The notes under the pieces are model-generated. The model was not told the origin of the DNA. It worked only from the letters and a program-made list of their open reading frames with translations, and did no database searches. Positions 21,249-61,960 of a DNA stretch of 64,000 nucleotides are shown here, one piece after another (position 1 is the stretch's first letter; each line of letters starts with the position of its first letter). A program made the position numbers and the translations under genes. Source of the stretch: Heptranchias perlo (Eukaryota); assembly GCF_035084215.1 (NCBI RefSeq), contig NC_090361.1:6820001-6884000 (forward strand), in the 5' to 3' direction.

Positions 21249-24200
21249 ATTAAGGGCGCCCTCCCCCCCCCCCCCTTAAAGCGGGCGTTAAGGGCGCCCT
21301 CCCCCCCCCCCACCTTAAAGCGGGCGTTAAGGGGCGCCCTCCCCCCCCCCCCCCACCTTAAAGCGGGCGTTAAGGGGCGCCCTCCCCCCCCCCCCCCCAC
21401 CTTAAAGCGGGCGTTAAGGGGCGCCCTCCCCCTCTCCCCTTAAAGCGGGCGTTAAGGGGCGCCCTCCCCCTCTCCCCTTAAAGCGGGCGTTAAGGGGCGC
21501 CCTCCCCCTCTCCCCTTAAAGCGGGCGTTAAGGGGCGCCCTCCCCCTCTCCCCTTAAAGCGGGCGTTAAGGGGGGGCCCTCTCTCCCCTTAAAGCGGGCG
21601 TTAAGGGGGGGCCCTCTCTCCCCTTAAAGCGGGCGTTAAGGGGGGGCCCTCTCTCCCCTTAAAGCGGGCGTTAAGGGGGGGCCCTCTCTCCCCTTAAAGC
21701 GGGCGTTAAGGGGGGGCCCTCTCTCCCCTTAAAGCGGGCGTTAAGGGGGCGCCCTCTCTCCCCTTAAAGCGGGCGTTAAGGGGGCGCCCTCTCTCCCCTT
21801 AAAGCGGGCGTTAAGGGGGCGCCCTCTCTCCCCTTAAAGCGGGCGTTAAGGGGGCGCCCTCTCTCCCCTTAAAGCGGGCGTTAAGGGGGCGCCCTCTCTC
21901 CCCTTAAAGCGGGCGTTAAGGGGGCGCCCTCTCTCCCCTTAAAGCGGGCGTTAAGGGGGGGCCCTCTCTCCCCTTAAAGCGGGCGTTAAGGGGGGGCCCT
22001 CTCTCCCCTTAAAGCGGGCGTTAAGGGGGGGCCCTCTCTCCCCTTAAAGCGGGCGTTAAGGGGGCGCCCTCTCTCCCCTTAAAGCGGGCGTTAAGGGGGC
22101 GCCCTCTCTCCCCTTAAAGCGGGCGTTAAGGGGGCGCCCTCTCTCCCCTTAAAGCGGGCGTTAAGGGGGCGCCCTCTCTCCCCTTAAAGCGGGCGTTAAG
22201 GGGGCGCCCTCTCTCCCCTTAAAGCGGGCGTTAAGGGGGCGCCCTCTCTCCCCTTAAAGCGGGCGTTAAGGGGGCGCCCTCTCTCCCCTTAAAGCGGGCG
22301 TTAAGGGGGCGCCCTCTCTCCCCTTAAAGCGGGCGTTAAGGGGGCGCCCTCTCTCCCCTTAAAGCGGGCGTTAAGGGGGCGCCCTCTCTCCCCTTAAAGC
22401 GGGCGTTAAGGGGGCGCCCTCTCTCCCCTTAAAGCGGGCGTTAAGGGGGCGCCCTCTCTCCCCTTAAAGCGGGCGTTAAGGGGGCGCCCTCTCTCCCCTT
22501 AAAGCGGGCGTTAAGGGGGCGCCCTCTCTCCCCTTAAAGCGGGCGTTAAGGGGGGCCCTCTCTCCCCTTAAAGCGGGCGTTAAGGGGGGCCCTCTCTCCC
22601 CTTAAAGCGGGCGTTAAGGGGGGCCCTCTCTCCCCTTAAAGCGGGCGTTAAGGGGGGCCCTCTCTCCCCTTAAAGCGGGCGTTAAGGGGGGCCCTCTCTC
22701 CCCTTAAAGCGGGCGTTAAGGGGGGCCCTCTCTCCCCTTAAAGCGGGCGTTAAGGGGGGCCCTCTCTCCCCTTAAAGCGGGCGTTAAGGGGGGCCCTCTC
22801 TCCCCTTAAAGCGGGCGTTAAGGGGGGCCCTCTCTCCCCTTAAAGCGGGCGTTAAGGGGGGCCCTCTCTCCCCTTAAAGCGGGCGTTAAGGGGGGCCCTC
22901 TCTCCCCTTAAAGCGGGCGTTAAGGGGGGGCCCTCCCTCCCCTTAAAGCGGGCGTTAAGGGGGGGCCCTCCCTCCCCTTAAAGCGGGCGTTAAGGGGGGG
23001 CCCTCCCTCCCCTTAAAGCGGGCGTTAAGGGGGGGCCCTCCCTCCCCTTAAAGCGGGCGTTAAGGGGGGCCCTCCCTCCCCTTAAAGCGGGCGTTAAGGG
23101 GGGGCCCTCCCTCCCCTTAAAGCGGGCGTTAAGGGGGGGCCCTCCCTCCCCTTAAAGCGGGCGTTAAGGGGGGGCCCTCCCTCCCCTTAAAGCGGGCGTT
23201 AAGGGGGGGCCCTCCCTCCCCTTAAAGCGGGCGTTAAGGGGGGGCCCTCCCTCCCCTTAAAGCGGGCGTTAAGGGGGGGCCCTCCCTCCCCTTAAAGCGG
23301 GCGTTAAGGGGGGGCCCTCCCTCCCCTTAAAGCGGGCGTTAAGGGGGGGCCCTCCCTCCCCTTAAAGCGGGCGTTAAGGGGGGGCCCTCCCTCCCCTTAA
23401 AGCGGGCGTTAAGGGGGGGCCCTCCCTCCCCTTAAAGCGGGCGTTAAGGGGGGGCCCTCCCTCCCCTTAAAGCGGGCGTTAAGGGGGGGCCCTCCCTCCC
23501 CTTAAAGCGGGCGTTAAGGGGGGGCCCTCCCTCCCCTTAAAGCGGGCGTTAAGGGGGGGCCCTCCCTCCCCTTAAAGCGGGCGTTAAGGGGGGGCCCTCC
23601 CTCCCCTTAAAGCGGGCGTTAAGGGGGGGCCCTCCCTCCCCTTAAAGCGGGCGTTAAGGGGGGGCCCTCCCTCCCCTTAAAGCGGGCGTTAAGGGGGGGC
23701 CCTCCCTCCCCTTAAAGCGGGCGTTAAGGGGGGGCCCTCCCTCCCCTTAAAGCGGGCGTTAAGGGGGGGCCCTCCCTCCCCTTAAAGCGGGCGTTAAGGG
23801 GGGGCCCTCCCTCCCCTTAAAGCGGGCGTTAAGGGGGGGCCCTCCCTCCCCTTAAAGCGGGCGTTAAGGGGGGGCCCTCCCTCCCCTTAAAGCGGGCGTT
23901 AAGGGGGGGCCCTCCCTCCCCTTAAAGCGGGCGTTAAGGGGGGGCCCTCCCTCCCCTTAAAGCGGGCGTTAAGGGGGGGCCCTCCCTCCCCTTAAAGCGG
24001 GCGTTAAGGGGGGGCCCTCCCTCCCCTTAAAGCGGGCGTTAAGGGGGGGCCCTCCCTCCCCTTAAAGCGGGCGTTAAGGGGGGGCCCTCTCTCCCCTTAA
24101 AGCGGGCGTTAAGGGGGGGCCCTCCCTCCCCTTAAAGCGGGCGTTAAGGGGGGGGCCCTCCCTCCCCTTAAAGCGGGCGTTAAGGGGGGGGCCCTCCCTC

Positions 24201-24420
24201 CCCTTAAAGCGGGCGTTAAGGGGGGGGCCCTCCCTCCCCTTAAAGCGGGCGTTAAGGGGGGGGCCCTCCCTCCCCTTAAAGCGGGCGTTAAGGGGGGGCC
24301 CTCCCTCCCCTTAAAGCGGGCGTTAAGGGGGGGCCCTCCCTCCCCTTAAAGCGGGCGTTAAGGGGGGGCCCTCCCTCCCCTTAAAGCGGGCGTTAAGGGG
24401 GGGCCCTCCCTCCCCTTAAA
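21249..24420. repeat. GC-rich minisatellite, 34-36-bp unit, about 90 copies, in FARSA intron 1
   Basis: Unit CCCCTTAAAGCGGGCGTTAAGGGGG(C/G)GCCCTC(T/C)CT repeated head to tail. Confidence 0.99.
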
Positions 24421-28409: not shown

Positions 28410-29245
28410 ACATTAATAAACTTACAGCATGGACTTGTAATATAGATAAATGTGAGGTGGTGCATTATTCTAGGAAGAATAAGGAGGCCACATACTCCTT
28501 GGAAAATAAGAGGCTAAATGGGATAGAGGATCAAAGGGATCTGGGGGTACAGATATACAAATCACTAAAAGTAGTGACGCAGGATAATAAGGCCAAAAAA
28601 ATAGCAAACTGTGGTTCATTCCTAGAGGGATAGAATTGAAAAACAGAGAAGTTATGTTAAACTTGTATGGAACCTTGATTACACCACACTTGGAGTATTG
28701 TACGCAGTTCTGGACTCCACTTTATAAAAAGGATATAGAGGCACTGGAGAAGGTGCAAAAAAGATTTACAAGGATGATAATAGAACTGAGAGCTTATACT
28801 TATCAGGAAAGATTTAACAGTCTGGTGCTGTTCTCTCCAGAAAAGAAAAGGCTGAGGGGTGACCTGAGAAAGGTCTTTGAGATTATGAAAGGGTTTGATA
28901 GGGTAGACGTAGAGAAGATGTTTCCACTTGTGGGGGAGACTAAAACTAGGGGCCATAAATATAAGATAGTCACTAATAAATCCAATAGGGAATTCAGGAG
29001 AAAAATTAGAGAGTGGTTAAAATGTGGAACTCACTACCACAAGGAGTAGTTGAGGCGAATAGCATAGACACATTTAAGGGGAAGCTAGATAAACACACGA
29101 GGGAGAAAGGAATAGAAGGATATGCTGATAGGGTTAGATGAAGAGGTGATGGGAGGAGGCTCATGTGGAGCATAAACACCGGTATAGACCAGTTGGGCCG
29201 AATGGCCTGTTTCTGTGCTGTACATTCTGTGTAATTCTATGCAAT
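28410..29245 (+). mobile_element. CR1-type LINE fragment
   Basis: PHLEYCTQFWTPLYKKDIEALEKVQKRFTRMI; attctgtgtaattctatg tail. Confidence 0.9.
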
Positions 29246-31344: not shown

Positions 31345-32200
31345 ATAGAATTACACAGAAACAGGCCATTCGGCCCATCTGTTAATTGCATCCATACCAA
31401 TTAGTGTTAATTGTATTCAGGTGTTGTGTATCAATTGGGGATTATCTTGTATCCATTCATATCAGAGCTTATCTAGGGCGTGCACCGGTGGGCAATGTGG
31501 ATCTCTGTGAATAAAGGCTTGGAAGCAACTGGAGACCAGGCTCTAGTATTCTATCCTTCACCACCAGGCTATGCAATTTATGACATCATCTGGTCTGTGC
31601 CAGTGTTCATGCTCCACACAAGCCACCTCCCACCCTACTTCATCTCACCCTATCAGCATATCCTTCTATTCCTTTCTCCCTCATGTACTTATCTAGCTTC
31701 CCCTTAAATGCATCCACTCTATTCGTCTCAACTACTCCATGTGGTAGCAAGTTCTACATTCTAACCACTCATAGGGTAAAGAAGTTTCTCTTGAATTCCT
31801 TATTGGATTTATTAGTGACTATCATATATTTATGACCCTTAGTTTTGGACTCACCACAAGTGGAAACATCTTATCTACGTCTACCCCATCAAATTCCTTC
31901 GTAATTTCAAAGATCTCTATTAGGTCACCCCTCAGCCTCCTGTTTTCTAGAGAAAAGAGCCCCAGCCTGTTCAGTCTTTCCTGATAGTTATAATCTCTCA
32001 GAACTGGTATCATCCTTGCAAATCTTTTTTGCATCTCCTCCAGTGCTCGATATCCTTTTTGTAATATGGAGACCAGAACTGTACCCAGTACTCTGAATGT
32101 GGTCTAACCTGGGTTCCACACAAGTTTAACATAACCTCTCTGCTTTTCAATTCTACCCCTCTAGAAATGAACCCCAGTGCTTTTTCTGCATTTTTTATGG
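31345..32200 (-). mobile_element. CR1-type LINE fragment, same subfamily as 28410..29245, opposite orientation
   Basis: QFWSPYYKKDIE; QKRFARMIPVLRDYNYQERL. Confidence 0.88.
31380..31585 (+). mobile_element. Solo LTR inserted into a CR1 3' tail
   Basis: TG...CA ends; internal AATAAA near 31510; CCATC/TCATC flanking duplication; interrupts cggcccatc|tggtctgtgccagtg. Confidence 0.7.
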
Positions 32201-32317
32201 CAGCACTGAGCCTGTGACAGGCCTCCTGAAACAAGAAGGCTACCTTTACCTTATCAGAGCCCACTGATAAGATAGGGAAAAGTTTCAGTACAAAGGCCTG
32301 CTCATTTACATTGTAGT

Positions 32318-32705
32318 CATGATGTGGAGATGCCGGTGATGGACTGGGGTTGACAATTGTAAACAATTTTACAACACCAAGTTATAGTCCAGCAATTTTA
32401 TTTTAAATTCACAAGCTTTCGGAGGCTTCCTCCTTCGTCAGGTGAACGATGTGAGATGTCACACTTTAGTCAATTCACTGACTCACTGTGAGCAACACCG
32501 CGGGAAATCTGCTAGTAATAGATGAAAAGTTTTATGTACAACAGCATTTTCTGTAAGTGTCACACTTAACTTCTGTAACACTTTCCCTGTCATACTTTGA
32601 TGATAACACATCGTTCACCTGACGAAGGAGGAAGCCTCCGAAAGCTTGTGAATTTAAAATAAAATTGCTGGACTATAACTTGGTGTTGTAAAATTGTTTA
32701 CAATT
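32318..32705 (-). mobile_element. Non-autonomous Penelope-like insertion: inverted terminal repeats around a captured local segment
   Basis: Perfect 99-bp inverted arms at 32355..32453 and 32607..32705; an extra ~37-nt tail on the left arm only; 16-bp direct repeat ATTTACATTGTAGTCA at 32304..32319 and 32703..32718; hammerhead motif in each arm. Confidence 0.85.
32614..32652 (+). ncRNA. Minimal type I hammerhead ribozyme motif (mirror copy on the minus strand at 32408..32446)
   Basis: Stem I TTCAC/GTGAA, core CTGACGA, stem II GGAGG-aag-CCTCC, GAAA, palindromic AGCT stem III. Confidence 0.75.
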
Positions 32706-33405
32706 TACATTGTAGTCAGTGGAGTGCAATGCAAAATAGTTCAAATGGTCTATCTTGTAAAATTTGCAAGTTGCAAGGATACACCTGACATTTTTGCTAT
32801 TGCCTGTTCTGTGTACAGTTTTAATGCAGGTCAGGAAATTGCTACTGTTGATGCCACATCCTGCTCTGCATAACAAATAAAGTGCAATATTTCAGCAAAG
32901 TTCCAATATCACAGGTATGGTTATTTTTAAGTTGAAACACATGCACACACATATATCTATACAATATTTTGAAATTCTTGTATACAACTAGACTTCCAGT
33001 TTCTGGCACACTTACGTCCTGTCACACTTTAGCCATCACACTTCAGATGTCACACTTTAGTCAATTCACTGACTCACTGTGAGCAACACCGCGGGAAATC
33101 TGCTAGTAATAGATGAAAAGTTTTATGTACAACAGCATTTTCTGTAAGTGTCACACTTAACTTCTGTAACACTTTCCCTGTCATACTTTGATGATAACAC
33201 CCCTATCACGCTCTCCAACCCCATGGGAAATCTGCTACATGTGTGTTATATCTGCATTAGACTTGATGACTAAGATGTTTATTCCATTTGTGAAGAAGCC
33301 CTCTATAAGTTTTACATCAATAAATAAAGATTTTTTTTTATTACCTTTCAATTTTCTCTTCTCTCCTGAAAGTGCTGATTCATTCTGGTGTATGATTCCA
33401 CTGTC

Positions 33406-34825
33406 ATAAGAACATAGGAACAGGAGTAGGCCATATAGCCCCTCGAGTCTGTCCCATCATTCGGTTCGATTATGGCTGATCTGTAGCTCAACTCCACTTA
33501 TCTGCCTTTGCTCCATATCCCTTGATACCCTTACCCATCAAAAAATTATGAAATCTCCAATTGTCCTGGCATCCACAGCCTTTTGAGGGGATTAATTCCA
33601 CATTTCCACTGCCCTTTGTGTGAAAAAAATGCTTCCTGATTTCAATCCTGAATGGCCTAGTGTTAAGATTACATTCCCCTTGTTCTGAATTCCCCCACCA
33701 GAGGAAATCTCTCTCTTTGGCAGTCCCTCAGGGTTGAGGATGACTTGGTGGAAGATGCCTGTGTGATGGATTATTTTGAATGTGGGAGTGGTTGTTGCAC
33801 ACCAACCACCACACAGTCCCAGTGGAGCAAAGTCTTGGCCTAATAGCTGTAGGACAGGGACAGTGTAGCACTTCACTGGAGTACCAGCCTAGATTTTTGT
33901 GCTCAAGTCTCTGGAGTGGGACTTTGAACCCACTACCTTCTGCCTTGAGAAGGTTAGAGGCAAGGAGTGCTACCCACTGAGCCACGGCTGACACTACCAG
34001 AGGCAATAGATTCTCTGCATCCACCCTATCGAATCCCTTTCTCATTTTAAAGACCTTGTTTAGATCACCCCTCAAACTTCTAAACTCAAGGGAATATAAA
34101 CCAAGTTTATGCAACCAGTCCTCATAATTTAACCATTTAAGCCCTGGTATAATTCTCGTGGATCTGCGCTGCACCCCTTCCAAGGCCAATATATCCTTCC
34201 TGAGATTCCGTGTCCCAGCTGAACACAATACTCGGGTGGAGTCTGACCGAGGCTCCGTACAACTGAAGCATAACTTCCTCACTTTTGAATTCCAACCCCC
34301 TTGAGATAAAGGCCAACATCCCATTAGCCTTTTTGATTGCTTTTTGTACCTGTGTGATTTTTTTGGTGATTTGTGTACATGGACACCTAAATCCTTTTGT
34401 TTCTCCACAGCTGCTAATCTCTCACTATTAAGAAAATATTTTCCGATTTGTCTTTCTCACATCCAGAGTGGATGACCTCACACTTCCCCACATTGAACTC
34501 CATCTGCCATAGTTTTGCCCACTCACTTAGTCTGTCTATGTCCTTTGTAACTTCCTGCTCCCATCTACACAACTTACTGTGCCTCCTAAATTTGTGTCGT
34601 CTGCAAATTTGGATATACAACTCTCTATTCCTTAATGAAGTCATTAGTATATATGGTGAAAAGCTGAGGCCCCAGTACAGATCCCTGGGGAACACCACTT
34701 GTCACATCCCACCAAACAGAGAACCTTCCCTTTATCCCTGCTCTCTGTCTCCTACTTCCCAGCCAATTAATGACCCGTCTCACAAGGTTACCTACAATTC
34801 CATGCGCTCTAATTTTTGCTAATAA
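33406..34825 (-). mobile_element. 5'-truncated CR1-type LINE (RT C-terminus, frameshifted)
   Basis: Remnants WQMEFNVGKCEVIH, KDLGVHV, LEGVQRR, GLYSLEFRSLRGDL; cataagaacatagg tail. Confidence 0.9.
33709..33993 (-). mobile_element. Chimeric SINE (DeuSINE-type tRNA head, different body, RTE-like tail) nested in a CR1
   Basis: Flanked by ACCAGAGG(A/C)AAT at 33697..33708 and 33996..34007; 3' end caagtcatcctcaaccctgagggactgccaaagagagag. Confidence 0.65.
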
Positions 34826-61605: not shown

Positions 61606-61960
61606 TGGGGAGGGGTGGGGGGAGAGAGGGGGGGGGGTGGGTGGGGGAGGAGAGGGGGGGGGGTGGGTGGGGGGAGGGGGGGGGGGGGGGGGGTGGGTGG
61701 GGGGAGGAGAGGGGGGGGGTGGGTGGGGGAGGAGAGGGGGGGGGGGTGGTGGGGGGAGGAGAGGGGGGGGGGGAGGAGGGGGTGGGGGAGCAGAGGGGGG
61801 GGGAGCAGGGGGGGGGTGGGTGGGGGGAGGGGGGGGGGGGGGAGGGGAGGGGGGGGGTGGGGGGAGGGGAGGGGGGGGGGAGGGGAGGGGGGGGGTGGGG
61901 AGGGGGGGGGGTGGGGGGAGGAGAGGAAGGAGGAGTGGGGGGAGGGAGGGAGGGTGGGAA
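61606..61960 (+). repeat. G-rich low-complexity tandem tract in RAD23A intron 1
   Basis: Imperfect repeats of GGGTGGGGGAGGAGAGGGGGGG. Confidence 0.95.

Follow-up and report, generated by a model that had tools for sequence, protein, structure and literature searches.

The window, i.e. the 64,000-nt stretch of DNA analysed here, contains a young Penelope-like retrotransposon in the form of a truncated insertion: two halves lie head to head, and a 156-bp stretch copied from DNA nearby bridges them. Local filler capture of this kind is general across the element family, yet it is a minority by-product of junction formation, and the captures are mostly dead ends. The bridge is probably a repair patch that arose during integration, as two cDNA ends were joined to each other.

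Structure of the insertion

Two inverted arms enclose the filler and are themselves flanked by an identical 16-bp direct repeat (Table 1). The arms are 100% complementary across 99 nt, and the filler matches its donor over 156 nt with zero mismatches at a start-to-start distance of 591. At the left join the filler shares 1 nt (A) with the arm, at the right join 3 nt (CAC). The predicted transcription start lies about 4 nt beyond the inner end of arm 1. A recheck of the sequence reproduced without a mismatch the coordinates that the initial annotation had given for repeats, arms, filler and donor, and the CAC overlap that it had described at the right junction is present. The tail is there as well, at a length of 35 nt rather than the roughly 37 nt first claimed.

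The donor is part of an old dispersed repeat, whose other matches are 70–86% identical. It had been considered that the donor might be an element-derived fragment recurring in many copies; filler and donor were the only 100% copies among the 40 scored of 347 candidates in the 3.25-Gb genome. The last 7 nt of the target-site duplication (TSD), GTAGTCA, also match the continuation of the element into its own start codon, and its first 3 nt (ATT) also match the arm. The true stagger is likely 12–13 nt, and the 16-bp repeat, the longest of 81 parsed TSDs, overstates the cut.

Table 1. Coordinates of the window locus and of the two related loci that carry one captured segment.
Feature	Position	Strand	Remark
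Left target-site duplication	32304..32319	+	Measured 16 bp; last 7 nt also match element (priming microhomology)
Penelope tail	32320..32354	-	35 nt, between two putative reverse-transcription start sites
Arm 1	32355..32453	-	5' part of element transcript (pseudo-LTR), putative first cDNA
Minimal type-I hammerhead motif, arm 1	32406..32447	-	Predicted; mirror of 32613-32654
Filler	32454..32609	+	156 bp, exact copy of 33045-33200, same orientation
Arm 2	32607..32705	+	Inverted copy without tail, putative second cDNA primed from opposite strand
Minimal type-I hammerhead motif, arm 2	32613..32654	+	Sequence motif, predicted
Right target-site duplication	32703..32718	+	First 3 nt common to arm end
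Filler donor	33045..33200	+	Retained in place; starts 326 bp past right TSD
Arm-filler-arm unit, L196	L196:3925-4333		G000 C2, 24.10 Mb; non-adjacent to donor
Arm-filler-arm unit, L221	L221:3890-4302		G000 C2, 24.94 Mb; donor beside L221 only

Elsewhere in the window we noticed a GC-rich 35-bp minisatellite of about 86 copies with 99% matches (21400-24420), a G-rich low-complexity tract (61607-61954), an inverted repeat pair of 83% (28608-29195 and 31587-32178) and a 242-codon open stretch on the minus strand (33731-34456). The inverted pair and the open stretch we take to be, likely, CR1-type LINE fragments. The repeats here appear to be of the kind found in cartilaginous fish.

Short-read support

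Assemblers have trouble with inverted repeats, and none of the unitigs listed covers the whole locus, so that the structure could in principle be an artefact built around the hairpin. Short-read contigs from two runs (X1, X3) of one sample, possibly the source sample, speak to this point. In both runs the filler, at exactly its limits, is one 156-nt unitig. Its depth in X1 is 15.4, about twice that of the flanking unitigs (7.7 and 7.5), and in X3 it is 25.3 against 15 and 21.7. The limits of this unitig together with its depth indicate two contexts for the 156-mer and thus argue against the misassembly that the initial annotation had named as a danger. The TSDs are intact, and at many other loci substitutions separate the filler from its donor. 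An artefact is therefore extremely improbable. The right arm, the right TSD and the donor are linked by one continuous 370-nt unitig; across this TSD it showed no branch for an empty allele in the one sample, for which 15 of 531 joints were listed. In runs of other organisms (X5, X7), coverage was confined to the repeat parts of the locus.

Hammerhead motif

Both arms contain, as read from the sequence, the parts of a minimal type-I hammerhead: stem I, CUGACGA plus an extra A, a 5-bp stem II, GAAA and a palindromic AGCU. The minimal hammerhead of Penelope-like elements (PLEs) is described as having a CUGANGA core, an extra base before G10.1-C11.1, GAAA, a palindromic stem III and stems I and II (PMC4209133, in part; here and below, "in part" marks sources represented by a portion of their text). 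Each arm thus appears to carry this motif, a candidate ribozyme that would cleave itself as a dimer or with the help of protein. Among 28 variants the core is invariant except for N7, and 95.5% of cells in the stems are paired, compared with 23–48% in slid controls; one pair has changed on both sides. Scanning the window against Rfam with E-values of up to 1 yielded no hammerhead family, and a mir-3718 match (E 0.97) was dismissed as chance. On the antisense strand at 32440-32447 and in the family variants, the stem I boundary resembles a splice donor in all subfamilies listed, which is probably a side effect of stem pairing.

The element family and its autonomous member

Family copies were located by sequence patterns. 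A 56-nt stretch of tail plus arm has 19,747 exact copies in the genome. At one locus, L126, 3,081-bp tandem units carry an intact 902-aa ORF. Arm plus tail are 96.7% identical over 123 nt there, and the start codon follows directly after the tail; in intact copies, too, the tail ends at the ORF start codon. The ORF matches RVT_1 above the cut-off (E 3e-10), and its C-terminus has a weak GIY-YIG match (E 7e-4; 20.3 bits, just under the Pfam cut-off of 22.6). The translation holds a CCHH motif whose two cysteines sit between GIY and YIG (VVYLIRCRKGC...YIG) and a DKG motif (ADKGG), both defined as features of EN+ PLEs (PMC8557442, in part). Between RT and EN lies a CX4CxxC linker, CHGNLCKTC. Since a CX2-5CxxC linker at this place is a mark of the Neptune and Nematis clades (PMC8557442, in part), the element would fit the Neptune/Nematis type better than Penelope/Poseidon. 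The tandem units (L126:1466-9742) are 100% identical over 5,130 bp and sit inside satellite, and an inverted 70-bp piece of the host satellite is found at the far end.

The layout of EN+ PLEs is present, with tandem units as pseudo-LTRs, an inverted truncated copy, a one-sided tail and a TSD. Of 137 inverted insertions, 121 had a tail on one arm but not on the other, and 16 of 30 unselected tail-bearing loci had an inverted partner within 900 nt. The Penelope-like identity proposed earlier is thereby borne out, including an RT plus GIY-YIG ORF and a predicted minimal hammerhead in each arm, and the autonomous partner bearing the same arm, anticipated in the initial annotation, is found at L126.

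Frequency and origin of fillers across the genome

To assess how common such fillers are, we counted head-to-head pairs of hammerhead anchors genome-wide. Among the total of 13,010 pairs, which include a few nested double counts, the anchor gap was 0–35 nt in 9,059, 36–109 nt in 2,297, 110–150 nt in 338, 151–210 nt in 421 and 211–400 nt in 895. Direct joining is thus the outcome for most pairs. Scaling from the first listed places per gap bin (9/49, 17/50, 4/50 and 1/50; contigs C1-C3, not random), we estimate about 300–320 fillers of at least 40 nt, or about 2–3% of pairs. An unselected set, comprising all 50 places of one listing, had a local filler at 10 places and a non-local one at 1. Among the 30 unselected tail-bearing loci there was no decisive long local filler; one of them, L032, has a 62-nt filler within satellite.

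Of the 137 distinct inverted insertions that were parsed, 37 had at least 40 nt outside the element library. The long interiors of L055, L078, L104 and L177 were judged by eye to be element sequence of subfamilies missing from the library and were dropped; L217 and L234 were likewise set aside by eye as element sequence of other subfamilies. Among the 33 interiors kept, 29 (the window's and 28 others) are copies of their own flanks. Four further local cases were added; with them, 32 of 36 non-element interiors of at least 40 nt are local, besides the window. Part of the loci had been picked because their previews looked non-element, a choice that depends on the filler but leaves the donor free. 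Exact matches to the own flanks measured 47–187 nt, compared with a median of 11–12 nt (maximum 69) in the flanks of 95–96 other loci.

The four exceptions differ. L096 has a 356-nt filler in two pieces, which derive from places about 0.84 kb apart on contig C27 in opposite orientations, with no element at the donor. The filler of L185 is a common short repeat, with the nearest 98.6% match about 5 kb away. L183 yielded no clear source, and the fourth exception, L196, is treated below.

Two suggestions made from the window alone, that the interior comes from the target neighbourhood instead of the element and that it differs from locus to locus, thus extend to these other insertions; in the window itself the neighbour is the only identical copy found. 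The arms had also been described as constant, whereas they extend beyond the hammerhead by anything between a few and more than 400 nt.

Filler size, donor position and joins

Donor geometry was analysed in 35 cases (34 plus the window), a set selected for long fillers in which three are 29–36 nt. Fillers measured 29–249 nt and formed one continuous piece in 30 of 35. The donor lay 14–1,963 bp away (median 345), within 500 bp in 27 of 35 and under 100 bp in 2. In the 33 cases with a known tail side, it was on the tail side in the same orientation in 15 and inverted in 6, and on the far side in the same orientation in 8 and inverted in 4. A peak of Okazaki or nucleosome size in filler length was looked for and rejected; in this gap-selected set the density is roughly flat to about 190 nt and then falls.

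Out of 70 filler joins, 37 were clean and 33 had extra bases; part of these are accounted for by mismatched ends or by subfamilies absent from the library. Microhomology of at least 2 nt was found at 28 of the 37 clean joins, compared with 24% in controls (p = 6e-11). At L143, L146 and L150 the head-to-head join itself contains 8–15 A or T. Such A/T runs at joins suggest slippage or untemplated addition at cDNA ends. At L161, L106 and L184, non-element or slipped sequence beside the filler is common to both arms, which implies that one arm was copied into the other.

Target cut and proposed priming from both strands

TSDs could be parsed in 81 of 97 tailed inverted insertions, and 62 of these are 12–13 bp. 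The positions of tail ends and of arm ends are confined to two narrow windows, separated by 35 nt. About half of the 81 insertions have at least 2 nt of microhomology with the target at the tail end (41, compared with 17% for random joins), and about half have it at the arm end (42, compared with 18%). In the 43 element-only joins with an arm of at least 40 nt, the two arm lengths correlate (rho 0.55). The arms were within 15% of each other in 47% of these joins, against 13% when permuted, and none of 5000 permutations was as high. Correlated arm ends, a fixed 12–13-bp TSD and microhomology at both target ends together point to priming from both strands.

A simple fold-back of the tailed cDNA cannot yield a tail-less arm that is the longer one. 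The tail-less arm was longer in 15 cases, the tailed arm in 6, and the two were within 10 nt in 18 (p = 0.08, not significant), which counts against this route. Agreement comes from a Poseidon-clade protein of Anolis, which in vitro cuts both strands and extends them, starting at two sites inside the RNA that delimit the tail (PMC11167929). There, however, the start site was reported to be non-homologous to the target, which counts against microhomology priming.

A TATA-like motif lies 27–32 nt from the end of the longer arm in 25 of the 35 insertions with filler and in 23 of the 40 direct joins, the latter selected for short gaps and with very short ends assigned ambiguously; this position tracks the spacing of the subfamily. 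Drosophila Penelope has a TATA-less internal promoter (PMC2377424, in part), which counts against reading the motif as a promoter, and the transcription start used here is a predicted one.

Three insertions, at G000:C1:15341356, 15356724 and 15372142, have an identical unusual join and are spaced by about 15.4 kb. They are probably a tandem segmental duplication.

Origin of the filler

We favour, with some confidence, a repair patch as the source of the 156-bp bridge. The endonuclease would cut both strands with a 12–13-nt stagger, and each 3' end would pair with a few bases of element RNA and prime reverse transcription. Priming would occur once per start site, at two sites 35 nt apart and probably on the same RNA, and both cDNAs would be completed by run-off at the 5' end of the RNA, which would lie some 30 nt downstream of the TATA-like box. 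The two cDNA ends would then be same-sense and unable to anneal, and would usually be joined via microhomology. In about 2–3% of cases, one end may first prime on DNA within about 2 kb and be extended by 30–250 nt, most likely by a host repair polymerase, before it releases and anneals to the other cDNA end.

Several observations fit this less well. The fillers are far longer and more distant than typical polymerase-theta inserts, with 30 of 35 in one piece, which leaves the enzyme uncertain. The 4 of 36 fillers that are non-local and the 2 of 35 donors that lie within 100 bp were counted against a repair patch. Non-element sequence on both arms at L161 and L106 (prefixes of 43 and 28 nt) counts against a pure two-cDNA model and indicates some DNA-to-DNA copying from arm to arm.

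Alternatively, in line with the template switching that the initial annotation had suggested, the element RT could, on reaching the RNA 5' end, move to a template close by, either single-stranded DNA or a nascent transcript; its product could then be joined to the second cDNA. The filler is attached mostly at the predicted RNA 5' end, as such a jump predicts, and fillers are long, accurate and mostly single-piece. Some cases (L182, L191) have A-runs between arm and filler. R2 proteins switch templates after full-length cDNA (PMC11371274, in part), and templated genomic DNA occurs in L1 ORF2p insertions (PMC11702581, in part). On the other hand, both joins have the microhomology and short extra pieces of host end-joining, the donors lie on both sides in both orientations, and L162 has a filler though both its arms pass the predicted start. 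We consider an RT jump a minority possibility.

The filler might also have been added after insertion, if a spacer-less palindrome broke at its centre and the gap was filled from nearby DNA, as in single-copy Pack-TIRs. Most family copies indeed have little or no spacer, and Pack-TIRs show the same cis bias and microhomology of about 2 nt (PMC8277862, in part); the non-element sequence common to both arms at L161 and L106 would fit as well. Between filler and donor we counted 30 differences in 4606 nt (0.65%), between the arms 26 in 2762 (0.94%; 34 loci, L188 being left out of the sum as nested). The nominally lower value for the fillers is in the direction that a later capture would predict, but the difference is not significant (p = 0.17). 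Moreover, filler copies are not older than the 40 direct joins (p = 0.40), 19 of 35 filler cases have no substitution between the arms, and the longer arm extends to the predicted start equally often in filler cases and direct joins. The comparisons of divergence and age favour capture at or soon after insertion, and we regard post-insertion filling as unlikely.

Onward movement of captured sequence

For eight of nine fillers searched genome-wide, a near-identical copy was found only at the insertion and its donor (for repeat fillers, among 40 candidates scored). The exception is the filler of L221, a single-copy 162-bp segment: L196, at a distance of 842 kb, has it too, and with the same joins. 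The flanks of L196 differ, it has a 13-bp TSD of its own, and its tail sits on the other arm. Twin priming on an L221 transcript would produce this arrangement. A new insertion that used L221 DNA as the template for its ends would produce it equally, and the short distance favours the latter.

The pair bears on a broader possibility, that Penelope RT jumps from the RNA end onto DNA a few hundred bases off and that the resulting arm-filler-arm units are re-transcribed and twin-primed, forming a Pack-type retro-cassette that moves local DNA. L196, with the filler and joins of L221, an opposite tail and a new TSD, is the product expected from a second round of this kind, yet we hold such a cycle to be distinctly unlikely.

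The initial annotation suggested that, if the pattern were general, the family would be a ribozyme-flanked cassette packaging host sequence; as a dedicated cassette, the arms would also spread this host DNA. The onward copy at L196 speaks for this, as does the L096 filler from another contig, and host DNA has been noted between the pLTRs of a rotifer element (PMC3846280, in part). However, 9,059 of the 13,010 pairs have a gap of at most 35 nt, local interiors make up only about 2–3%, and no third copy was found for eight of nine fillers. The arm-filler-arm units are mostly without a TATA-like box, and the single daughter lies near its parent and fits DNA-templated copying equally well. A dedicated cassette is therefore very improbable.

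Discussion

Inverted copies, tails and hammerheads are already known for PLEs, and the window locus belongs to this known class of elements. EN+ PLEs of the Neptune/Nematis type likewise have a single ORF with RT and C-terminal GIY-YIG, tandem units, an inverted 5'-truncated copy, a one-sided 30–40-bp tail, a TSD and a minimal hammerhead (PMC8557442, PMC3846280, both in part). The origin of the tandem and inverted structures has been described as unresolved (PMC8557442, in part; PMC11167929). For the unrelated DNA between pLTRs in the rotifer, the available part of PMC3846280 traces no local source and gives no frequency, whereas both were determined here. The same source explains inverted joins by antisense self-priming, whereas our evidence points to two-strand priming. 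The Anolis Poseidon protein shares with our element the two-strand cut and extension and the two start sites that bound the tail, but belongs to a different clade without the zinc-finger linker. For that protein, target and start site were reported to lack homology, whereas here roughly every second genomic join has at least 2 nt, and the PAc hammerhead overlaps the ORF start, whereas ours is upstream of the ORF. Inverted joins and fillers are not treated in the main text (all PMC11167929).

L1 twin priming likewise involves two cDNAs from two nicks, and their length correlation has been examined (10.1101/2024.08.27.596794; PMC11702581; both in part). Its twin-primed parts are different segments, whereas here both arms are the same segment, which gives a palindrome. 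L1 insertions also contain templated genomic copies of less than 250 bp, 22 cases in 3,598 insertions according to the same sources, in part. Their templates are typically within 15 bp of the site (10.1101/2024.08.27.596794, in part); here the median is 345 bp, and 1 of 35 is at 14 bp.

Polymerase theta likewise copies flanks from microhomology primers and leaves extra short pieces, and 28 of 37 clean joins here have at least 2 nt, but its inserts are generally under 25 bp, compared with mostly one-piece fillers of 29–249 bp in our set, which was chosen for long ones (PMC12426944, in part). In the snap-back joins of R2, too, the cDNA 3' end primes on itself or on nearby DNA, there rDNA (PMC11371274, in part). 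Pack-TIRs similarly enclose nearby filler between inverted repeats, with short microhomology, and are mostly single-copy and rarely re-mobilised; they are, however, DNA transposons gap-filled after insertion, whereas here two retroelement cDNAs are joined and the capture appears roughly as old as the insertion (PMC8277862, in part). Pack-type amplification of captured sequence, seen as a third copy, occurred for 1 of 9 fillers searched.

Among the openly accessible main texts, passages and abstracts covered, none reported fillers of local origin in PLE insertions. The available part of a retrozyme preprint (10.64898/2026.07.22.740005) contained no match for capture or twin priming. The value of the present data lies in their scale, the donor distances, one onward copy and the support for two-strand priming. 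About 13,000 near-identical inverted insertions form a large natural data set on Penelope integration, which gives a fixed cut geometry, two microhomology priming windows, paired cDNA ends and several hundred patches. With it, the two-strand priming model becomes testable in vivo and with protein from the intact ORF. The patches themselves keep adding small duplications of local sequence, with donors at much greater distances than reported for L1.
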